Origin: an uncultured Candidatus Saccharibacteria bacterium
GTDB taxonomy: Bacteria > Patescibacteriota > Minisyncoccia > UBA6257 > UBA9933
Assembly (NCBI GenBank): GCA_964367055.1
Contig: CAYIWD010000001.1
Span: forward strand, 1-52,140
DNA length: 52,140 nucleotides
Direction of reading: 5' to 3'
Shown here: piece after piece, positions 9,317-49,782 of the stretch
Numbering within the stretch: position 1 is the stretch's first letter
How the letters are laid out: every line of letters begins with the position of its first letter
Made by a program: the position numbers and the translations under genes
The notes under the pieces: generated by a model
The model's database searches: none
Seen by the model: only the letters and a program-made list of their open reading frames with translations
Told to the model about the DNA's origin: nothing

Positions 9317-10348
9317 ATGAAAATTGTATTAATTTCTAATTCAGTAAAAGAAGGAATGGCGGGAAGCTATTCAAGGGGTTTTTTAGAGTTGAACGAGAAG
9401 GCGGAAATTATTGATGACGACAAACTTTATAAAGAAAGCGTTTTTTTAGCGAGAAATAAATATCTTCATCATTTATTTTGGCGTTTTTTAGCCTCTTTTT
9501 TCCAGAAAAGATTAATTGAGCGTATTGTCAGCGAAAAGCCGGATTTAATTTTTATTTTCAAGGGCTGGCTGGTAAAACCAAAAACCATGCTAGAAATAAA
9601 AAAAGAGTTGCCCAGCGTTAAGCTTTTCAATCTTAACACCGACAATCCGTTTAATACTTGGCATCACAGCAATTCTAACTCTTGGATAATAAAATCAATT
9701 CCTTTATACGACGCTTATTTTACCTGGGGCAAATTTCTAGTTGAGCCAATCTTAAAAGCAGGCGCCAAGAGAGCGGGGTATCTGGCTTGCGGATACGACT
9801 CTTATCTTCATCATCCGGTAAGTATTAACGAAAAAGAAAAAGAATTTTACGGCTCTGATATTGCTTTTATCGGAAGCTGGGATGAGGAACGCGAGGTGTG
9901 GCTTGAATATCTTAAAGATTATGATTTAAAAATTTGGGGAAACGCATGGCAAAAAGCTCCAAAATTAAAAAAAAATTGGCAAAGAAGAGCGGTTTCCAGT
10001 GAAGAATTTTCTAAAGTTTGCAGCGCTTCGAAAATTGTTATAAACGTTTTGAGAAAACAAAATATGCCTGCTCACAATATGAGGACGTTTGAAGTGCCGG
10101 CTTGCAAAGGATTTATGTTATCTACGAGAACCGAAGAACAAAAAGGATTTTTTAAAGAAGCCGAAGAAGCTGATTATTTTTCTAACCCAGAAGAATTAAA
10201 GGAGAAAATAGATTTTTATCTTAAAAACAATGAATTAAGACAGAAAATTGCCGCCGCTGGTTATAAAAGATTATTAAATTCTAATTATAGTTATACGGAT
10301 AGAGCTAAAGAAGTTATTGAAATTTATAAAAATATTAAAAATGATTAA
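9317..10348 (+). CDS. CgeB-family / DUF3880-type glycosyltransferase-like protein
   Basis: C-terminal region NVLRKQNMPAHNMRTFEVPACKGFMLS ... IAAAGYKRL resembles CgeB/YkvP-type GT1-like proteins. Recalled from memory, not searched. Confidence 0.5.
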   Translation: MKIVLISNSVKEGMAGSYSRGFLELNEKAEIIDDDKLYKESVFLARNKYLHHLFWRFLASFFQKRLIERIVSEKPDLIFIFKGWLVKPKTMLEIKKELPSVKLFNLNTDNPFNTWHHSNSNSWIIKSIPLYDAYFTWGKFLVEPILKAGAKRAGYLACGYDSYLHHPVSINEKEKEFYGSDIAFIGSWDEEREVWLEYLKDYDLKIWGNAWQKAPKLKKNWQRRAVSSEEFSKVCSASKIVINVLRKQNMPAHNMRTFEVPACKGFMLSTRTEEQKGFFKEAEEADYFSNPEELKEKIDFYLKNNELRQKIAAAGYKRLLNSNYSYTDRAKEVIEIYKNIKND

Positions 10349-12521
10349 TACTAAAAAAAGTGTTTCGATAATTATACCTTCTTACAACAGAAAAAATTTG
10401 CTGCAGGAAAGTTTGGAAGCAATTAAAAAACAGAAATTTAACGGTTTTTTAGAAGTTATCGTAATAGATGATAATTCTTCGGATGGCACAATTGAAATGT
10501 TAAAACAAAAGGCGGCGGCCAAAAACAAATTTATTTTTAAGTATTTCGAATCGCCGCACTTAGGTCCAGCCAGGGCTCGCAATTTGGGTATCAGCTATTC
10601 AAAAGGCGAGATTTTGATATTTTTAGACGACGATAGTGTGGTTCAAAATAGCGACTATGTTCAAAAAATGGTTGAAAGTTTTAAAGAAAAAGATACGGGA
10701 ATCGTTGCTGGAAAAACATTAGATTTTTATTCGGGGATTTTAAAATTAATCAGAGCCGGCGATCCGCCGGAACTTGATTTTAATAATCCCTCAAAACTTA
10801 AAGAAGCAGAGGGAGTACCCACTAAAAATGCGGCTTTTTTAAGAGAAGCAGTTGCTACTGTCGGAGGATTTAATCCATCTTTCAACTTTTTAAGCGAAGA
10901 TACCGATTTATGCATCAGAATCATAAATTCGGGTTATAAATTAGTGTTTAACGAAAAGGCTTTGGTTTACCATTACCCGACCGCCGATTTCATAAGCTAT
11001 ATTAAAAAATCATATTCAATCGGTTTTTCTCACGGAGTATTTCATTTTTTCCATCCCAATAAAAGTCCAAGAATTTCTTTATTTAAAATTATCATATTTC
11101 CAATATTAGCCGGACGAAAGTTTATTAAGAAAATAAAAATATGTTTTGCTAAAAAATTATTTAGTCAGGCAGCCATAAAGGAAATCAGCTTAATGTTTTT
11201 TTGGATTAGCGCTAATTATTGCGCCACGTCTTTTGGCGAAGTTGATTATTTAATTAAAAGAATTTTTGTTTCAATAAACCCCGTTAGAAATTGTAGCAGA
11301 ATATTAAGCCCCGCTGGGATTATTCAAGAAAATAACACAGTCGCAGCCGAGCCGTGGGCCATTATTTCTAACGGGGTAAAAATAAAATTAAAGATGGTAA
11401 AAGGCTTAGGCCATTATTTTTTGGAATTGATAAAATATTTTATCAAGACGACGTTTCTGCCGATTAGAAGAACTTTTATTCTTTATTTGACTAATAAGTG
11501 TAATCATCGTTGCCAACATTGCTTTTTTTCTGAAAGCATCAATAAAAACATTCAAGAACTTTCTTTGGCGGATTTGAAGAAAATTGCCGAAAATTATTTT
11601 CACTATACCAATACAAAAAAGTTTTTAGCCAAAAGCATTTGGCAGGGATTTACCGGCGGAGAACCCTTTTTAAGAAATGATTTGTTAAAAATAGTTTCGC
11701 TTTTTAAAGACTCGGGAGTTGAAAATTTTCAGATAAATACAAACGGTATGTTAACTGAGAAAATTTTGAGTTTCAGTCGGGAAATGTTAAAACAAAATAC
11801 CCCTTTTAAAATTATTATTAGTATTGATGGCCTAGAAAAAACCCACGACAAAATCAGAAACACGCCGGGCGCTTTTCAAAACGCGATTAATACGATCAAA
11901 AAATTGAAAAGTATTGGAATAGAAGCGGGTACGATAATGACTATTAATAAATTGAATTATAAAGAAATACCGGATGTGGTAAGATTTCTTAATGGTAATT
12001 TCAATATTGAACCAGGCTTGCATCTAATTAGAGGCGTTAGCCAGTCAGATGCTCCGATGGAATTTATGAATATAGCCGACCCCTTGGAGAAAAATATCTT
12101 GATTACAAAAGATATTATTCCGGAATTAAGAGATATCTTATTTAAAACCTATTTAGCAAAAGCAATTGAAAATCCCCTTAAGACAGTTGAGTTGGCGAGA
12201 AAATTTACTTATCTTGAATGCCATTTGGATATTTTAGAAAAAGGAAAAAGATTATTTAAATGTGTGGCTGGTAAGTCAATCGGAGTAATTTATCAAAACG
12301 GCGATGTGGCGCTTTGTGAATTTTATAAGCCCATTGGGAATCTGAAAAATGTTGACTTTGACCTATCGACTCTTTGGCACAATAAAGAGGCCGAAAAACA
12401 AAGGAGTTATATTAAAAAATGCTTTTGCCATCATGATTGTTTCATTAATACTGAATACAATTTCAGATTCATGAGACGGCTGGCAAGTAATGTCAACAAA
12501 TTCATAAAATTTTATGGCTAA
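10341..12521 (+). CDS. Apparent fusion: GT2 glycosyltransferase (N-terminal) + radical SAM/SPASM enzyme (C-terminal), bridged by a palindromic insert
   Basis: VSIIIPSYNRKNLL ... VIVIDDNSSDGT (GT2). YLTNKCNHRCQHCFF and GGEPFLR (radical SAM). C-terminal CVAGKS...GDVALCEF ... CFCHHDC (SPASM-like). The linker is encoded by the inverted-repeat element at 11278-11377. An internal ATG at 11394 could start a separate radical SAM protein. Confidence 0.7.
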   Translation: MINTKKSVSIIIPSYNRKNLLQESLEAIKKQKFNGFLEVIVIDDNSSDGTIEMLKQKAAAKNKFIFKYFESPHLGPARARNLGISYSKGEILIFLDDDSVVQNSDYVQKMVESFKEKDTGIVAGKTLDFYSGILKLIRAGDPPELDFNNPSKLKEAEGVPTKNAAFLREAVATVGGFNPSFNFLSEDTDLCIRIINSGYKLVFNEKALVYHYPTADFISYIKKSYSIGFSHGVFHFFHPNKSPRISLFKIIIFPILAGRKFIKKIKICFAKKLFSQAAIKEISLMFFWISANYCATSFGEVDYLIKRIFVSINPVRNCSRILSPAGIIQENNTVAAEPWAIISNGVKIKLKMVKGLGHYFLELIKYFIKTTFLPIRRTFILYLTNKCNHRCQHCFFSESINKNIQELSLADLKKIAENYFHYTNTKKFLAKSIWQGFTGGEPFLRNDLLKIVSLFKDSGVENFQINTNGMLTEKILSFSREMLKQNTPFKIIISIDGLEKTHDKIRNTPGAFQNAINTIKKLKSIGIEAGTIMTINKLNYKEIPDVVRFLNGNFNIEPGLHLIRGVSQSDAPMEFMNIADPLEKNILITKDIIPELRDILFKTYLAKAIENPLKTVELARKFTYLECHLDILEKGKRLFKCVAGKSIGVIYQNGDVALCEFYKPIGNLKNVDFDLSTLWHNKEAEKQRSYIKKCFCHHDCFINTEYNFRFMRRLASNVNKFIKFYG
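11278..11377. mobile_element. 100-nt palindromic-ended element (ACCCCGTTAGAAAT ... ATTTCTAACGGGGT) inside a coding region
   Basis: Perfect 14-bp terminal inverted repeat. Its ends and subterminal sequence (AGCAGAAT..GCCCC) are shared with the intergenic copy at 49649-49754. Confidence 0.6.
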
Positions 12522-13230
12522 AATTTCTTCTTTTATATCTTTTATTTTCGGTATTAGTCGCCACAAAAAACTTATTGTGTTTATATTTTTAATAATTGGA
12601 TTAACTATTGTTTTTTATTTAAGAAAAATAAATTATTTGACCCCCGAAAACATCACCACCCTTCTTAAATTGCATCCGTTTCTGTCTCCTTTTTTATTTA
12701 TACTATTTTACGCTTTAATGATAATTTTTCTTTTTCCAACGCTGCCGATGAATCTCGCCGCTGGTTTTCTTTTCGGATGGTTTTGGGGCGGAATCATTAC
12801 AATTTTGGGAGCTTCTTTGGGTGCTTCAGCCTCTTTTATTATTGCAAGGTATTTGGCGTCAGATTATTTAAATAAAAAATTTAAAGGAAAATTTTTCCTT
12901 TCATTGCAGGAAGAAATTCAGAAAAAGAATTGGAAAGTAGTGGCTTTTACCAGAATTAACCCGATTTTTCCTTCCGGCTTGCTTAATTATATTTTCGGTT
13001 TGACAACTATCCCCTTTAATAATTATTTCTGGGCAACCATACTTTTTGTGTTGCCGCCGGTATTTTTATTTTCTTTTATCGGAGATTCTATCGGCGGTTT
13101 TGTTTTAAAAGGTGGTTCATATAATCTTGTCAGAAATATTTTTATAATTTCTTTTATCGCAACTTCTTTAGTTATTTTACAATTCATCGCAAAAAAGTAT
13201 AAAGTGTTTTACCGGCGAACAAATACATAA
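12514..13230 (+). CDS. TVP38/TMEM64 (DedA-related) family membrane protein
   Basis: Multi-TM protein with LFPTLPMNLAAGFLFGWFWGGIITILGASLGASASFIIARYL, typical of the family. Confidence 0.75.
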   Translation: MAKISSFISFIFGISRHKKLIVFIFLIIGLTIVFYLRKINYLTPENITTLLKLHPFLSPFLFILFYALMIIFLFPTLPMNLAAGFLFGWFWGGIITILGASLGASASFIIARYLASDYLNKKFKGKFFLSLQEEIQKKNWKVVAFTRINPIFPSGLLNYIFGLTTIPFNNYFWATILFVLPPVFLFSFIGDSIGGFVLKGGSYNLVRNIFIISFIATSLVILQFIAKKYKVFYRRTNT

Positions 13231-14978
13231 TAATCAGGCGAATGTGTTAAATTCTCATTTATTGTAAGACCCCTAAATAGAGTAGATTTTGCTTTCTGTT
13301 CGTAAGATAGTCTCTGGGAGAAAAATATTTTTAGGATTGTTTTTGAATTTAGGTCAGGAAAAAAGAGGGGGCTGGTTGTTTGGAAAATCAATTTGTAATC
13401 TTTATTTAAAGATTGAAGATATTCGTTATCAACATTATTTTTTTCGCTTAAGGCCTCAATGATTAAATAGTCGCCGGACGATATTTTATCCGGTTTATCC
13501 GTTTTAAAAATACTAAAAGGCAAAGATGTTTCAGGAGATTTTGACGATAAAAGGGGAGAAGGATTTACGGTTAATAGATCTGATTTAAGGTCAAATTGTT
13601 GGCTTGAAAGTCCTTTAAATTGGAGGAACTCTCCTAAAATAAAATAAATTTCTTTATCGCCGTTTCTGCCGGAATTATCAATAAAAATATTAGCCTTCCC
13701 ATAAGGATGATTAGCTTTTATGTCTTGAATCAAAAAATTCAACGTTTTATCAAAATTAATCGGCAGATATTTATTAAAGGTGAGGTAGTGAATTCCGGAA
13801 GGTAAAACATTTAAAATTAGCATTGCTGCGGTTACAGCCAGAGCAATTTTCCATATTAACTTTTTTTGTTCGTTGGCACCGAAAAATAAAACAAATAAAG
13901 GCGGCAGAGCAAAGATATAAGCCGGCAATAAATAGCGAGGTAGAGGGATATTCAGTACAAAAAGCCCTATTATGTATATGGAAGCGGTTATAAGCATTGA
14001 GTCGTATAAGGGGTGCAATTTTTCATGCTTAAATAGCGCTTTAAATAATCGCCAGATGACAAAGGGTATAAGAATTAAAATAAGAACCGGGTCGCCGAAA
14101 AAAGCACAACTGATAAAATTCTTTATAAATACAATTATAGAACTATATGGAGTGAAGCCGACAATATTCGGATTTTTGTGCAGATAGACAACGAAATAAT
14201 AGATAAGAATATAAATGAGAGAGCTTAAAAATAATAGAGCATCAAAAATTTTCATCCCCACACCAAACGAATCCATATTTCGTTTAGCGTCAGGGGCATT
14301 AGTGTTCGTTATGGTGTGGGGGTTTATTTTTTTGCCCGTTGTTCTCCAAGAAATAAGAAAATGAATAAAAGCGAAAGCGCCAATAGCGATAAATACGGTT
14401 TCTCTGTAATATGAAGCAATATTAGCCGCAATTAATCCTCCAATGAGATAAACTATTTTTTGGTTTTTTAGATATGTTAAATAACACAAAATAAAAATTG
14501 CCAAGAAAAATATTACATCCCTTTCGTTTAACTGTAATCGGAACCACGACATAGTAAATCCCGGAGTTAAAGATATCAGAATTGGAGTAAGATATATGAG
14601 AAATTTATTAGAAGTGAATTGTTTTAATATTTTTATAAGTAAAATCATCAGCACAACAAATTGAATTGCGTGAATAAGATAATATAAGATTGCTGACGGC
14701 GATTTTGATAAAAGGCCCACTAGATTGTATTCCATCGCCGCGAGCGGAACAAAACGGCCGCCTAAAATAGCATTATAATAATAATAAGGAAAATTCGCGC
14801 TGTAATACAAAATTGGTTTGCCGACCTGAAGGGTTTTTAAAAATATAAAATCATCGGTTGGGCCTAAGGCGGGACCGATTAATAAAATAAGGGCATAACC
14901 CATAACAAAAAACCCAAAAAATATAATTAAATAATTTTGCCGTAAATACTGCTTCATTTGAATAATTATACTATGCAT
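13209..14978 (-). CDS. Large polytopic membrane protein, probable GT-C-type (ArnT/PMT-like) glycosyltransferase
   Basis: 589 aa. About 400 aa of hydrophobic helices are followed by a soluble C-terminal domain. The call rests on architecture and glycan-cluster context only. Its 3' end overlaps the convergent gene by 22 nt. Confidence 0.45.
   Translation of the reverse strand: MHSIIIQMKQYLRQNYLIIFFGFFVMGYALILLIGPALGPTDDFIFLKTLQVGKPILYYSANFPYYYYNAILGGRFVPLAAMEYNLVGLLSKSPSAILYYLIHAIQFVVLMILLIKILKQFTSNKFLIYLTPILISLTPGFTMSWFRLQLNERDVIFFLAIFILCYLTYLKNQKIVYLIGGLIAANIASYYRETVFIAIGAFAFIHFLISWRTTGKKINPHTITNTNAPDAKRNMDSFGVGMKIFDALLFLSSLIYILIYYFVVYLHKNPNIVGFTPYSSIIVFIKNFISCAFFGDPVLILILIPFVIWRLFKALFKHEKLHPLYDSMLITASIYIIGLFVLNIPLPRYLLPAYIFALPPLFVLFFGANEQKKLIWKIALAVTAAMLILNVLPSGIHYLTFNKYLPINFDKTLNFLIQDIKANHPYGKANIFIDNSGRNGDKEIYFILGEFLQFKGLSSQQFDLKSDLLTVNPSPLLSSKSPETSLPFSIFKTDKPDKISSGDYLIIEALSEKNNVDNEYLQSLNKDYKLIFQTTSPLFFPDLNSKTILKIFFSQRLSYEQKAKSTLFRGLTINENLTHSPDYYVFVRR
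14266..14331. repeat. 66-nt imperfect inverted repeat embedded in-frame in the membrane protein gene
   Basis: CCCCACACCAAACGAA (14266-14281) pairs with TTCGTTaTGGTGTGGGG (14315-14331): 16 bp with one bulge. It encodes the hydrophilic segment NPHTITNTNAPDAKRNMDSFGVG. Confidence 0.5.
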
Positions 14979-21986: not shown

Positions 21987-22137
21987 TATGCCCAGTAACA
22001 TTACTTCGATGACCTTGTTTTTCTGAAAAACAAGGTAAATGAGTAAGCTGGGTAAAATTAATAAAATTATTAAACAAAACTTTATCTAATAACTCAATTT
22101 ATTGAGTTATTAAGTCGAAGTAATGTCACTGGGTATG
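21987..22137. mobile_element. Family-1 start-codon insertion A (ORF-less, 143 bp between TATG copies)
   Basis: TATG|CCCAGTA ... CACTGGG|TATG. 22-bp arms at 21988-22009 and 22115-22136 with 2 mismatches. Internal perfect hairpins at 22012-22036 and 22087-22112. The right TATG supplies the ATG of the downstream gene. Confidence 0.6.
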
Positions 22138-24673: not shown

Positions 24674-24826
24674 TATGCCCAGTAGTGAGCCCGTGATAAA
24701 TTCAATTCCCAATTTGTCGGGTTTAGTGCTGGGGCAAAGATAGTCTATAAAGCAATAATTTAGTGATCCCAAAAAGCAATGAGTTAAATTAGACAAATTG
24801 CTATCGCGGATCTACTACTGGGTATG
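24674..24826. mobile_element. Family-1 start-codon insertion B (ORF-less, 145 bp between TATG copies)
   Basis: TATG|CCCAGTAGT ... ACTACTGGG|TATG. Internal hairpin at 24690-24721. The right TATG supplies the ATG of the GHMP kinase gene. Confidence 0.6.
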
Positions 24827-43420: not shown

Positions 43421-44731
43421 ATGTCTATGAATGATGATTTAAAAAATAACCTGATTCAGGAATTTAAAAACAGATTTCCGTCAAAAAAATTTGTTCCTGG
43501 CGAATCTCCAATACCGGTTTCCGGTAAAGTTTTTAACGAAAAAGAAATATTAAAAATGACAGAGGCAGTTTTAGATGGTCATTGGACTGACGGCAAATAT
43601 GCCAAGGAATTTGAAGAAAAATTAGCTGAATTTTTTGGCTTAAAATTTTGTTCGCTTGTTAATTCCGGCTCTTCTGCTAATTTATTGGCTTTAACTGTCC
43701 TAACTTCTTTTAGAATTCCCGAAGAAAAACGGCTTAAAAAAGGCGACGAGGTGATAACCACAGCTGCTAGTTTTCCTACTACTATAAATCCGATTATTCA
43801 AAATGGTTTAGTACCTGTGTTTGTTAATGTTGAATTGGGGAGCTACAATGCGACACTGGAAAATGTCAAAAACGCCGTTTCAGACAAAACAAAAGCCGTT
43901 TTTATGGCTCACACTTTAGGTAATCCTTATGAGGTTGAAGAACTTAAAGAATTTTGCGAGCAAAATAATCTTTGGCTGATTGAAGATAACTCTGATAGCT
44001 TAGGTTCAAAATATAACGGAAAATTCACCGGCACCTTTGGGCATTTATCAACTTTGAGTTTTTATCCGGCGCATCATATTACAACGGGAGAAGGCGGCGC
44101 GATTTTAACGGATGATCCCTCGCTTAATAAAATTGTCCGTTCTTTGCGCGATTGGGGCCGGGACTGCTGGTGTCCGACTGGTCAAGATAATACTTGTAAA
44201 AAGAGATTTGATTGGCAATTGGGTGATTTGCCGCACGGCTATGACCACAAATATATTTACAGCGAAATCGGCTATAATTTGAAAATTACGGATATTCAAG
44301 CTGCTCTTGGCTCAGCTCAATTTGATAAATTAGCCGGATTTATTCAGAAACGGAAAGAAAATTTTAATTATTTATATACAGCATTTAAAGAATTTGAGGA
44401 TGATTTTATTTTGCCTGTTTGGGACAAAAAAGCAGACCCGAGCTGGTTTGGTTTTCTGTTAACCATTAAAAATACCGCTAAATTTAAAAGAAATGATTTA
44501 TTGAAGTTTTTAAATAACAGAAAAATCGGCACTAGATTACTTTTCGCCGGAAATATCACTCGTCAGCCATATTTTAAAAATTATAAGATAGATTATCGTA
44601 TTTCTGGAGAACTTAAAAATACAGATGAAATTATGAATAATTGTTTTTGGATTGGCGTTTACCCGGGTTTAAACAAAGAAATGCTGGATTATATAATTAA
44701 ATCTTTCAAAGAATTTTTCCCCCACTCTTAA
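43421..44731 (+). CDS. rfbH: CDP-6-deoxy-D-xylo-4-hexulose 3-dehydrase (E1, RfbH/DdhC)
   Basis: NSGSSANLLA. SFYPAHHITTGEGG, with His replacing the PLP Lys. RDWGRDCWCPTGQDNTCKKRF is the Cys-rich Fe-S segment characteristic of RfbH. Confidence 0.85.
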   Translation: MSMNDDLKNNLIQEFKNRFPSKKFVPGESPIPVSGKVFNEKEILKMTEAVLDGHWTDGKYAKEFEEKLAEFFGLKFCSLVNSGSSANLLALTVLTSFRIPEEKRLKKGDEVITTAASFPTTINPIIQNGLVPVFVNVELGSYNATLENVKNAVSDKTKAVFMAHTLGNPYEVEELKEFCEQNNLWLIEDNSDSLGSKYNGKFTGTFGHLSTLSFYPAHHITTGEGGAILTDDPSLNKIVRSLRDWGRDCWCPTGQDNTCKKRFDWQLGDLPHGYDHKYIYSEIGYNLKITDIQAALGSAQFDKLAGFIQKRKENFNYLYTAFKEFEDDFILPVWDKKADPSWFGFLLTIKNTAKFKRNDLLKFLNNRKIGTRLLFAGNITRQPYFKNYKIDYRISGELKNTDEIMNNCFWIGVYPGLNKEMLDYIIKSFKEFFPHS

Positions 44732-45011
44732 AGCATCTGATTATGTTTTTCTGTGTCTATTTGTTAAAATTAAAATTGGACGGTAGCTTTTATACCGGTT
44801 TTGCTGAGAACATCAGGGAAAGGTTGGAAAAACATAAACAGGGGCTAGTAATATCGACTAAGAATTTAAGACCTATGGAATTGGTATATTTTGAAGGATA
44901 TAAATCAAAAAGGGACGCGTTGGTAAGAGAAAAAAGACTAAAGCAGTTTAAAAAGGATATGCTTTCCTAAAGCGTAGACTTTCTGACTCTTTATTGCTTT
45001 AAGAGTGAGGG
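44719..45011. mobile_element. GIY-YIG cassette D bracketed by a 17-bp inverted repeat
   Basis: CCCCCACTCTTAAAGCA (44719-44735, includes the last codons and stop of rfbH) vs TGCTTTAAGAGTGAGGG (44995-45011, ends 1 nt before the ATG at 45012). 16/17 complementary. Confidence 0.5.
44743..44970 (+). CDS. Small GIY-YIG (URI-domain) nuclease family protein
   Basis: 75 aa. CVYLLK...GSFYTGFAENIRERLEKH...REKRLK matches the GIY / YIG / R / E pattern of COG2827-type proteins. Confidence 0.75.
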   Translation: MFFCVYLLKLKLDGSFYTGFAENIRERLEKHKQGLVISTKNLRPMELVYFEGYKSKRDALVREKRLKQFKKDMLS

Positions 45012-46727: not shown

Positions 46728-47046
46728 TATGCCCAGTATGAGAATTTCAAAATGGCATTATGTTTATGTATTATTAAGTCAGAAGGATGATGAATTTTAT
46801 ATTGGCTATACCCAAAATCTAAGAAAAAGAATCGATGAACATAATGCCCCAAAAAATTTTTCAACTAAATCAAGAATTCCCCTGACTTTGATTTATACTG
46901 ATGCATGTCTAAATAAAGAAGATGCTCAAAGAAGAGAAAGATATCTTAAAACTACGCAAGGTCGAAGATTTCTTAAATTAAGATTGAGGAAGTTTCTACA
47001 AAATGGTAATTGAAAAATTTAATTTGAAATTCCTCTACTGGGTATG
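46728..47046. mobile_element. Family-1 start-codon insertion C carrying a GIY-YIG ORF (311 bp between TATG copies)
   Basis: TATG|CCCAGTA ... TACTGGG|TATG. Arms ATGCCCAGTAtGAG-AATTTCAAA vs the reverse complement of the right end, ATaCCCAGTA-GAGgAATTTCAAA. The left ATG is the start of the GIY-YIG ORF and the right ATG is the start of the GT4 gene. Confidence 0.6.
46729..47013 (+). CDS. Small GIY-YIG (URI-domain) nuclease family protein
   Basis: 94 aa. HYVYVLLSQKDDEFYIGYTQNLRKRIDEHN ... RRERYLK. Confidence 0.8.
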   Translation: MPSMRISKWHYVYVLLSQKDDEFYIGYTQNLRKRIDEHNAPKNFSTKSRIPLTLIYTDACLNKEDAQRRERYLKTTQGRRFLKLRLRKFLQNGN

Positions 47047-49640: not shown

Positions 49641-49648
49641 CGTGGTTT

Positions 49649-49754
49649 ACCCCGTTAGAAGCAGAATGCCCCACGGTCTTGCCGCGAGGATGAATGCTTA
49701 AAAATAAATTAGTAAGCACGGGGTTTAATGCCCAGTGTGAGCTTCTAACGGGGT
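49649..49754. repeat. Intergenic copy of the ACCCCGTTAGAA palindromic element (E), containing a family-1 left-end motif
   Basis: Perfect 14-bp inverted repeat ACCCCGTTAGAAGC (49649-49662) / GCTTCTAACGGGGT (49741-49754). The interior shares AGCAGAAT..GCCCC with the copy at 11278. ATGCCCAGTGTGAGC at 49728 resembles the left end of element B. Confidence 0.6.
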
Positions 49755-49782
49755 TTACTTTCAACCATAGTCGGTTTAATAT
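49754..49782 (+). promoter_or_regulatory. Promoter-like TTTACT-17 nt-TAATAT (copy 2 of duplicated upstream block)
   Basis: Same hexamers and spacing as 28282-28310. 18 nt upstream of the ATG at 49800. Confidence 0.45.

Follow-up and report, generated by a model that had tools for sequence, protein, structure and literature searches.

How the two halves of a GT2-radical SAM/SPASM gene came to be joined is the question raised by this locus, in which the linker between the domains is encoded by a short palindromic segment. The gene (10341..12521, forward strand) lies within the 52,140-nucleotide stretch analysed here, referred to as the window, and is called as the same 726-aa ORF in three independent assemblies of Hainich well H43. 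The preliminary description of the locus proposed that a 100-nt element had fused two ordinary adjacent genes. We consider below the exact boundaries of the segment, the organization of homologous genes, and the distribution of related segments in the window and in other genomes.

The inserted segment and its host gene

The window contains the perfect 14-nt inverted repeat described previously (11278-11291 and 11364-11377), and its outer A/T is part of a 4-bp direct repeat, TAAA, present on both sides of the segment (11275..11278 and 11377..11380); the true terminal repeat is 13 nt long. The element, el1, is 98 bp (11279..11376, forward strand) with ends CCCCGTTAGAAAT...ATTTCTAACGGGG that match at 13 of 13 nt. 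The left terminal repeat (11279..11291) is read in the host frame as P-V-R-N and the right (11364..11376) as I-S-N-G. Together with one copy of the TAAA target-site duplication, el1 lengthens the gene by 102 nt (34 codons; NPVRNCSRILSPAGIIQENNTVAAEPWAIISNGV, residues 313-346), and only one of its six frames is open, that of the host gene. Because 102 nt is a whole number of codons and the PVR...SNG frame is free of stops, the host ORF remains uninterrupted and is longer by a loop of 34 residues. In the structural model the insert is coil (pLDDT <50 for 312-343) between helices 276-312 and 339-372, and the loop is predicted to be disordered, splitting one long linker helix.

The host ORF begins at ATG 10341, although an upstream TTG at 10317 would give a protein of 734 aa. 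Pfam matches were found to all three parts of the protein, in agreement with the domain order noted earlier: GT2 (1-231), Radical_SAM (390-558) and, weakly, SPASM (649-708). A fourth contig carries a one-residue variant of the ORF in which the insert is also present, and with the three assemblies this makes misassembly unlikely.

Excision of 102 nt, that is el1 and one TAAA, leaves an uninterrupted 692-aa ORF reading ...FVSIKIKLKMVKG..., and the restored junction, KIKLK, aligns with the conserved LKIK-[IL]K of homologous proteins. We compared 16 homologues (27-72% identity), all of which lack the 34 residues as a clean gap. Fifteen of the 16 are GT2-radical SAM fusions. Twelve homologues with 51-64% identity (694-707 aa, 98-99% coverage) have both domains in one polypeptide, and three of the four remoter homologues (26-28% identity, 96-97% coverage) are likewise fused without the insert. 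The exact 692-aa excised protein, which would represent an empty-site allele, is absent from a collection of 15 billion proteins.

These comparisons bear directly on the proposed fusion, in which a GT2 gene ending ..IKK-TAA and a radical SAM gene starting at ATG 11394 were joined by a frame-shifting insert. The underlying arithmetic is reproducible: deletion of 11278-11377 gives ...FVSIKK-stop, with an in-frame ATG 8 nt further on at 11394, and the sixteenth homologue, P0013, is a 407-aa fragment with the radical SAM part only. However, the deletion ignores the TAAA duplication and removes 100 nt instead of 102 from A+T-rich sequence, so that the stop followed by an ATG is spurious, and the real insertion shifts no frame. 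Searching relatives for separate genes without the segment yields fused ones instead, including every full-length homologue, and the syntenic loci L245 and L244 are fused at the DNA level too. At the P0013 locus (L244) one frame runs through both parts, interrupted only by a stop within the GT2 part, and this is no natural two-gene arrangement. The Met at 11394 aligns with L, A or I in the homologues, and a start at this position is therefore not conserved. We regard an ancestral pair of genes fused by the insert as refuted by the excision and the homologues.

Related elements in the window and in other genomes

The related intergenic copy noted earlier at 49649-49754 is confirmed, and this second element, el2, is 104 bp (49650..49753, reverse strand), aligns to el1 in the opposite orientation, and is flanked by TTTA duplications at 49646-49649 and 49754-49757. 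Internally, el2 is 62% identical to el1 and 77-79% identical to copies at two other loci (L063 and L027). The window has exactly four occurrences of ACCCCGTTAGAA, all of them at el1 or el2. Both elements are predicted to fold stably (-32 to -45 kcal/mol; z = -3.5 to -6.6 relative to shuffled sequence). No empty site was found for el2, as the other assemblies of the region, two of which break their contigs at el2, either retain it or end there.

The terminus is matched at over 120 genome loci, spread over many phyla, where approximately one match would be expected by chance, and 120 of these loci hold 167 copies. The family extends well beyond the two copies first noted. The copies derive from Patescibacteria, Planctomycetota, Desulfobacterota, Nitrospirota, Omnitrophota and others; at least eight phylum-level lineages have the 10-11-nt terminus in common, and the interior of el1 is 66-75% identical to copies of approximately 95 nt from other phyla. 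Copies fall into size classes of approximately 29, 78-80 and 94-106 nt. Identical 4-bp flanks are found at 95 of the 167 copies (57%, compared with 9% expected), and the target is TNNA, with T and A at the outer positions in 89%. A search of protein clusters with a duplicated profile of the translated 34-aa peptide gives matches to 593 clusters. Inverted termini, a fixed-length duplication, small size with no transposase gene of its own, and many copies dispersed over unrelated sites are features of miniature inverted-repeat elements (MITEs), and el1 is a non-autonomous transposable element of this kind.

The family is also present within other genes, including those coding for exonuclease III (Xth), IorA, a MEMO-like protein, HypD, LigA, a radical SAM protein and an FKBP isomerase. 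Each of the eight copies that lie in real genes has a frame-keeping length; all eight are in frame and are read in the same frame, ..PVR...SNG.., compared with 40% in frame among 119 others (P = 7e-4). The LigA insert falls between positions corresponding to E. coli LigA residues 160 and 167, and a homologue of the gene neighbouring the host gene has its own 47-bp copy, also in frame. The frame statistics suggest that genic insertions are probably translated through and not removed.

The suggestion in the preliminary description that el1 is a mobile palindromic element lying open within a coding gene, similar to those of Rickettsia, is borne out by these in-frame copies and duplications. That the 34 residues are instead a native functional linker, a regulatory RNA or DNA hairpin with nothing mobile about it, or an assembly artefact is extremely improbable: the segment is indeed open, stably folded and located between domains, but its absence from all homologues argues against a native linker, hundreds of homologous copies with duplications are found elsewhere, and an artefact would have had to arise in three assemblies and in the variant contig. 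A structured RNA was considered as an identity for the family and rejected, as Rfam gives no matches in the window at gathering scores and none at E <= 1 in six loci.

GIY-YIG genes between the same termini

Longer elements with the same termini contain a gene. Among 124 elements of 265-295 bp, 89 (72%) contain an ORF related to GIY-YIG nucleases (E = 1e-18 to 1e-43), the first example being that at locus L033, and these elements of approximately 280 bp consist of little beyond this gene of approximately 86 aa, which is UPF0213-like. The ORF starts immediately inward of one terminus and takes its last codons (..LTG) from the other, and its stop codon comes from the flank. The ORFs comprise 87 distinct sequences, all but two of which are 83-91 aa, with the consensus M.YvYvl.S.Kd...YtG.T.dL.kR...Hn...liYyE....DA..RE.YLK, in which the catalytic pattern is conserved (residues Y..Y.G, R, H/E and E). 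The encoded protein matches PF01541 (E = 1e-13 to 1e-16), and the nearest solved structures are the UPF0213 proteins 1zg2, which is closest, and 1ywl (BH0048, EF2693). A GIY-YIG protein has been reported among the genes transferred from Patescibacteria in a Hainich study (PMC12455944). The GIY-YIG gene near a MITE at locus L011 lacks these termini and was rejected as an ordinary UPF0213 gene.

There is no full-length element with CCCCGTTAGA termini in the 52-kb window, and the nearest full-length relatives are on other Hainich contigs of different G+C content (L168, 49%; L178, 42%; L134, 32%, the last with termini ..AGATAT). The window does contain two further inverted-repeat families around the same kind of gene. 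The second family is represented by a full-length element of 311 bp (46732..47042, forward strand) with termini CCCAGTA...TACTGGG, containing a gene for a 91-aa GIY-YIG nuclease (46738-47013), which is called with a GIY-YIG Pfam match in L246, and by two ORF-less derivatives of 143 bp (21991..22133) and 145 bp (24678..24822); all three share the CCCAGTA termini and a TATG duplication. The third-family element (293 bp, 44719..45011, forward strand) has termini CCC[C/T]CACTCTTAAAGCA and wraps a 75-aa GIY-YIG ORF, and no flank duplication is seen at this site.

A 98-bp MITE with 13-nt terminal inverted repeats has thus inserted at TAAA, duplicating it, in the inter-domain linker of a single, already fused GT2-radical SAM/SPASM gene. 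The same termini bracket both the MITEs and the GIY-YIG elements of approximately 280 bp, and we infer that the nuclease mobilises the elements. In the mechanism that we propose, the GIY-YIG nuclease, supplied in trans, would mobilise ORF-less copies; it may cut element ends and TNNA targets with a 4-nt stagger, and host repair or ligation may complete the move. We assign a probability of roughly 0.85 to the reading as a whole, namely an in-frame 98-bp MITE in a gene that was already fused, with termini shared with GIY-YIG elements and mobilisation proposed to be due to the nuclease.

Inverted termini together with a fixed-length duplication are a hallmark of DDE transposition, and both are present here. 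Movement of the MITEs by a DDE transposase, with the GIY-YIG gene as a passenger or an addiction-type cargo, is an alternative that we consider unlikely, although several features are in its favor: an IS1380/piggyBac-like enzyme would suit the CC(C) termini and the 4-bp duplication, and GIY-YIG enzymes are hydrolytic nucleases that are not known to transfer strands or to join DNA. Moreover, the interiors of the MITEs are unlike the GIY-YIG gene, so the MITEs did not arise from the longer elements by simple deletion, and many ORF-bearing copies lack identical flanks. Against this, among the first 120 loci, with 8 kb or less around each match, no pair of termini 200-4000 bp apart encloses a DDE transposase; what lies between such pairs is housekeeping genes with a separate small element on either side. 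The 72% of 265-295-bp elements with an ORF contain the GIY-YIG ORF alone, with its start and stop built into terminus and flank, and this kind of gene is found within all three of the unrelated terminus families of the window. The protein clade also correlates with terminus variant and flank behavior. Clade 1 is paired with termini of the type found in el1 (..AGAAA[C/T]) and has identical flanks in 12 of 17 elements, whereas the larger clade has them in only 11 of 68, with 25 of its elements splitting the 8-mer TTTA^TGAA, a pattern that a simple duplication model does not explain and that counts against the mechanism proposed here.

The full-length elements could also be homing endonuclease genes, copied by double-strand breakage and repair into cognate sites, with the short copies as decayed remnants. 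GIY-YIG is a classic homing-endonuclease fold, the element-encoded protein has weak NCBIfam matches to group I intron endonucleases, and some ORF-bearing copies are at conserved flanks (e.g. five with ..GATTGGATTCA). However, the short copies are scattered over many unrelated sites, among them eight genes that have nothing in common, with site-specific 4-bp duplications (e.g. CGTG, CAAG and CCCA), and homing produces neither inverted termini nor duplications; we consider this origin distinctly unlikely. The insertion sites being diverse, with site-specific duplications, an identity as homing endonuclease genes was rejected.

Comparison with known systems and implications

The family has features in common with several known systems. 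Like the Rickettsia palindromic elements (RPEs), for which we know of no mobilising enzyme, these are short palindromes lying in frame in genes that stay open, with the peptide usually gained in a tolerant surface or linker region. They differ from RPEs in having clear 4-bp duplications, defined inverted termini and candidate full-length gene-bearing relatives, and are unrelated in sequence and host, which is Rickettsia for RPEs and here Patescibacteria and many other phyla; as the host is a groundwater Patescibacteria-type genome, membership of el1 in the RPE families is very unlikely. The DDE-derived MITEs (Correia, RUP, Nezha and Coxiella QMITEs) similarly are 30-300 bp with inverted termini, a fixed-length duplication, many dispersed copies and occasional in-frame genic insertions, whereas the sampled loci here have no DDE transposase with these termini and only the GIY-YIG gene of approximately 86 aa. 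The piggyBac/IS1380 elements have CCC...GGG termini and a 4-bp duplication with outer T/A (TTAA, compared with TNNA here), but are 1.5-2.5 kb with a DDE/DDD transposase, of which none was found in the sampled loci.

The REP/REPIN-RAYT system also has a small nuclease-type gene bracketed by an inverted motif and gene-less doublets scattered as long hairpins, but RAYTs are HUH/Y1 enzymes, and REPINs have a GTAG-type motif and make no duplication, unlike the GIY-YIG genes and 4-bp duplications here. The window has one RAYT-like (Y1) ORF (1834-2313), flanked by an unrelated hairpin (1586-1617 and 1772-1803), and we rejected a REP/REPIN-RAYT identity on the basis of this difference and the duplications. 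The mycobacteriophage MPME1/2 'ultra-small mobile genetic elements' are likewise very small (approximately 440 bp), with short inverted repeats and one small ORF, in which, to our knowledge, no nuclease fold is recognised; they are confined to mycobacteriophages and lack MITE derivatives, whereas the elements here are 265-295 bp and cellular. A single GIY-YIG domain is shared with homing endonuclease genes and with UPF0213/YhbQ (Slx1-like) genes, but those lack bracketing inverted repeats with duplications and ORF-less copies. Integron attC sites were rejected, as the core motifs run the other way round (GTTAGAA 5' and TTCTAAC 3', compared with the inverse core RYYYAAC 5' and the core GTTRRRY 3' in attC) and the copies are solitary, with duplications and inside genes, unlike attC sites in cassette arrays beside an integrase.

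A literature search (terminus sequence, GIY-YIG with inverted repeats, MITE, and UPF0213/COG2827/YhbQ) returned no description of such elements. We tentatively propose, at somewhat less than even odds, that the CCCCGTTAGA elements, together with the second and third families of the window, could constitute an undescribed class of DNA transposons present in many phyla, in which a GIY-YIG nuclease of approximately 86 aa is the sole gene. No known autonomous mobile element would be smaller than these (265-295 bp), which would have their own MITEs and a 4-bp TNNA/TATG duplication and would routinely add PVR...SNG peptides to housekeeping proteins.

For the host gene, fusion by a transposon gives way to a clean, recent in-frame MITE insertion that is apparently tolerated in the linker. 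The family is a second and much broader case of Rickettsia-type palindromic elements adding peptides to proteins; DNA ligase, exonuclease III and HypD are among those affected, in lineages that are uncultivated and have tiny genomes. The element also accounts for hundreds of spurious 'hypothetical proteins' of 40-120 aa in annotations and for some contig breaks in metagenome assemblies. Testing the GIY-YIG proposal is easy, as nothing beyond a protein of 86 aa and a pair of 13-nt ends would be involved. If the nuclease does drive mobilisation, its chemistry would be a new enzymatic class beside the few known for transposases (DDE, DEDD, HUH, serine, tyrosine and Cas1), and the smallest autonomous transposon would thereby be defined.

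The palindromic element and its host gene

The gene at 10341–12521 encodes a GT2 and radical SAM/SPASM protein of 726 aa from the ATG at 10341, or of 734 aa from a TTG at 10317 (the SPASM match is weak), and contains the first of two related palindromic elements, el1. As noted in the preliminary description, there is a perfect 14-nt inverted repeat, ACCCCGTTAGAAAT at 11278–11291 with its reverse complement at 11364–11377, and a similar repeat pair bounds a second, intergenic copy (el2) at 49649–49754. El1 and el2 together account for all four exact occurrences of the 12-mer ACCCCGTTAGAA in the window, and each is predicted to fold, on either strand, much more stably than shuffled controls (-32 to -45 kcal/mol; z = -3.5 to -6.6). 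To define the boundaries, el1 and el2 were aligned with each other and then with 127 copies from other genomes. The conserved terminus begins with CCCC and is bordered on its outer side by a 4-base direct repeat, TAAA at el1 (11275–11278 and 11377–11380) and TTTA at el2. The outer A...T of the 14-nt repeat belongs to the TAAA duplication, and el1 is therefore 98 bp (11279–11376), with 13-nt ends, rather than the 100 nt first described; the insertion event comprises 98 + 4 = 102 nt, or 34 codons, in frame.

El1 had been proposed to have fused separate GT2 and radical SAM genes, which we reject. Deleting 11278–11377 does make the GT2 frame read ..FVSIKK-stop, with an in-frame ATG at 11394, but this apparent ancestral state of two genes arises spuriously when 100 nt are deleted where 102 is correct; with the element and one TAAA removed, the ORF is uninterrupted, 692 aa long, and reads ..VDYLIKRIFVSIKIKLKMVKGLG.. 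at the junction. Relatives do lack the insert, but are fused rather than separate: 12 homologues (51–64% identity, 694–707 aa, 98–99% coverage) combine GT2 and radical SAM in a single polypeptide, as do three of four more distant homologues (26–28% identity, 96–97% coverage); the match of P0019 covers only 45% of the query. The 34 residues NPVRNCSRILSPAGIIQENNTVAAEPWAIISNGV correspond to a clean gap in all other members of a 17-sequence alignment, where the restored KIKLK aligns with the homologues' LKIK-[IL]K, and the Met at 11394 lies opposite L, A, or I and is thus not a conserved start. At the DNA level, too, the gene is a fusion at the syntenic loci L245 (Wolfebacteria) and L244. The fused homologues that lack the 34 residues and the fused syntenic loci together indicate that the GT2–radical SAM fusion predates the element.

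The orthologous gene at L244 (GCA_041643275.1; L244:3188–5224) is a continuous frame with a single in-frame stop in its GT2 part (..NEYALV*HYPTS..), because of which it is called as a 196-aa GT2 protein and a 407-aa radical SAM protein (the radical-SAM-only P0013); the stop could reflect a pseudogene, a sequencing error, or recoding. Misassembly of the el1 insert is unlikely, since three assemblies, made independently of one another from Hainich groundwater well H43, have the same ORF including the insert, and another contig has a one-residue variant of it, also with the insert. Two contigs from other assemblies that match the window at ~48.2–49.7 kb (L247 and L248) stop 36–63 nt past the flippase gene, inside el2, as expected for a multi-copy repeat in short-read assembly. 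Nearly all of the window (69–51761) is occupied by one same-strand cluster, encoding B12-binding radical SAM enzymes, glycosyltransferases, methyltransferases, sugar epimerases, aminotransferases, and a flippase, and it resembles a large locus for a surface glycan or modified sugars, with an unusual abundance of radical SAM genes.

A dispersed family and its in-frame copies

Many copies exist beyond the two in the window. A pattern scan for CCCCGTTAGAA-N55-85-TTCTAACGGGG, whose 22 fixed bases give an expectation of ~1 chance match in the 596 Gb of a species-representative genome collection, returned at least 120 stretches; the matches listed include Patescibacteria (many classes), Planctomycetota, Desulfobacterota, Nitrospirota/Thermodesulfovibrionia, Omnitrophota, KSB1, Edwardsbacteria, Ratteibacteria, and Gammaproteobacteria. 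With one mismatch allowed per terminus, 167 copies are present in the listed loci. Identical 4-bp flanks are found in 95 of these (57%) versus 9% expected from flank composition, and rare duplicated tetramers (for example CGTG, CAAG, CCCA, and CTCG) are represented. The complete genome CP113000.1 is among those with copies. The duplicated site starts with T and finishes with A in 89% of cases, and the target adjoining the element terminus (CCCCGTTAGAAAT) is therefore TNNA. Copy sizes cluster at ~29, 78–80, and 94–106 nt; el1 is in the ~95-nt subfamily, with an interior 66–75% identical to copies in distant lineages, and el2 is 77–79% identical to copies in two Parcubacteria. Rfam has no match for the element. 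From its distribution, duplications, and size classes, we classify the family as a MITE.

In-frame insertion of a palindromic element thus holds for el1 and extends to other genes. Eight copies lie inside recognisable genes, those for GT2–radical SAM (el1), exonuclease III, IorA, a MEMO-like protein, HypD, NAD-dependent DNA ligase, another radical SAM protein, and an FKBP isomerase, and all eight are read in the frame in which the termini become ..PVR.. and ..SNG..; the LigA insert lies between E. coli LigA residues 160 and 167. Length plus four is divisible by three in all eight, versus 40% of 119 others (binomial P = 7e-4), and because such a constraint would not exist were the insert removed from the RNA, we infer that the genic inserts are translated. 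In an AlphaFold model of the el1 host protein, using a homologue alignment, the insert is a low-confidence coil (pLDDT <50 for 312–343) that splits an otherwise single long linker helix into 276–312 and 339–372, and both catalytic domains are well modelled.

A profile of the translated element matches 593 protein clusters, most of which are 40–120-aa 'hypothetical proteins' called across intergenic copies; a small number are genuine proteins, ribosomal protein L30 among them, suggesting terminal extension of small housekeeping proteins by the MITE. We note that P0301 and P0346 (both ribosomal protein L30, 92 aa each) and P0313 have real Pfam domains as well as a match to the translated MITE peptide.

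Two genes along from the el1 host, a membrane-protein gene (ORF 13209–14978, minus strand) contains a second in-frame palindromic insertion, a 66-bp palindrome (14256–14321; CCCCACACCA...TGGTGTGGGG) within a 24-residue segment, NPHTITNTNAPDAKRNMDSFGVGM, that is absent from all 11 aligned homologues. Its flanks are degenerate (ATAAAC/ATGAAA) and it is probably older. A homologue of this membrane protein on a Hainich H32 contig (P0037) has its own 47-bp element (L249:912–958; TCCCGTTAGAAGT...ACTTCTAACGGGA), in frame and in the same loop, reading ..WNPVRSSPAERDATSNGI.., with the first base altered symmetrically at both termini (T...A).

GIY-YIG nuclease genes between inverted termini

At the Omnitrophota locus L033, a 281-bp element has an 87-aa GIY-YIG ORF inside the same termini. 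A metagenome scan for CCCCGTTAGA-N245-275-TCTAACGGGG gave at least 120 matches, and 89 of the 124 elements among the matches listed contain a GIY-YIG ORF (E = 1e-18 to 1e-43). The ORF fills its element: the ATG is 15–25 nt inside one terminus, the other terminus encodes the last codons (..S-L-T-G), and a TAA or TGA in the flank is the stop. The 87 distinct proteins (all but two 83–91 aa; mean identity 59%) conserve the catalytic pattern and belong to PF01541, with UPF0213 proteins as the closest solved structures; 5,932 clusters at 50% identity (E <= 1e-3) make up the wider family.

The element proteins form two clades. Clade 1 elements have termini ..AGAAA[C/T], the variant of el1, and identical flanks in 12 of 17; clade 2 elements have ..AGAGAT or ..AGATA, and identical flanks in 11 of 68. 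The flanks of 25 clade 2 metagenome elements (L125–L243) are TTTA...TGAA or the reverse complement TTCA...TAAA, and these elements split the 8-mer TTTATGAA (TTTA^TGAA) but do not duplicate it, and the ORF can point either way relative to the split site. The flank adjoining the ORF end is almost always a stop codon. Full-length copies are present on contigs from the same aquifer (L134, L168, and L178), with an el1-type terminus and a clade 1 protein in L168 and L178.

Two other families in the window also enclose GIY-YIG ORFs. The first has termini CCCAGTA...TACTGGG and a TATG duplication, with one ORF-bearing copy (46732–47042, 311 bp, 91-aa GIY-YIG protein) and two ORF-less copies (21991–22133, 143 bp; 24678–24822, 145 bp), a set that parallels the link between el1 and the GIY-YIG elements. 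In all three the right-hand TATG gives the start codon of the downstream gene (ATG at 22135, 24824, and 47044), and at 46732–47042 the frame of the left-hand ATG runs into the GIY-YIG ORF (..MPSMRISKW..). Because the duplications provide an ATG each time, start codons seem to be the precise insertion sites of this element, which may borrow the translation signals of the host gene. The other family (44719–45011) has 17-nt termini, CCC[C/T]CACTCTTAAAGCA, enclosing a 75-aa GIY-YIG ORF, and no flank duplication was seen at this copy. Elsewhere in the window, a truncated Y1 transposase-like ORF (1834–2313) has sub-threshold matches to IS200-type and REP-associated tyrosine transposases, and two inverted copies of the hairpin motif ATAACGACTTGCGATGTCGTTAT lie upstream (1586–1617 and 1772–1803); 1586–2313 may be a REP/RAYT-type system, unrelated to el1.

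Mobilisation and known systems

El1 thus has inverted termini and a 4-bp duplication, is inserted in frame in a pre-existing fusion gene, and is a member of a wide family, the termini of which are associated with a GIY-YIG gene. We propose that the nuclease would act in trans on the element termini, cutting element ends and TNNA targets with a 4-nt stagger, and that host ligation or repair would finish the move. No DNA-joining activity is known for GIY-YIG enzymes, which counts against a simple nuclease model, as do the clade 2 flanks (11/68 identical, and TTTA^TGAA split in 25) and the MITE interiors, which are unlike the GIY-YIG gene. The main rival is that a conventional DDE transposase mobilises the elements, with the IS1380/piggyBac type likewise having CC(C) termini and 4-bp duplications; however, no transposase is found between terminus pairs 200–4000 bp apart in the first 120 loci listed.

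In its effect on the host gene el1 is like the Rickettsia palindromic element, and in its anatomy it is a MITE. REPIN-RAYT systems similarly have a small nuclease gene bracketed by inverted motifs and gene-less doublets scattered elsewhere, although the enzyme fold differs and the el1-type family has duplications. Mycobacteriophage MPMEs (~440 bp) are larger than the full-length GIY-YIG elements. A Hainich study places a GIY-YIG protein among the genes that other bacteria seem to have acquired from Patescibacteria (PMC12455944). Literature searches turned up no account of prokaryotic inverted-repeat elements that encode GIY-YIG nucleases. A MITE inside a gene is an already known kind of event, and it is the GIY-YIG association that could be new in kind.
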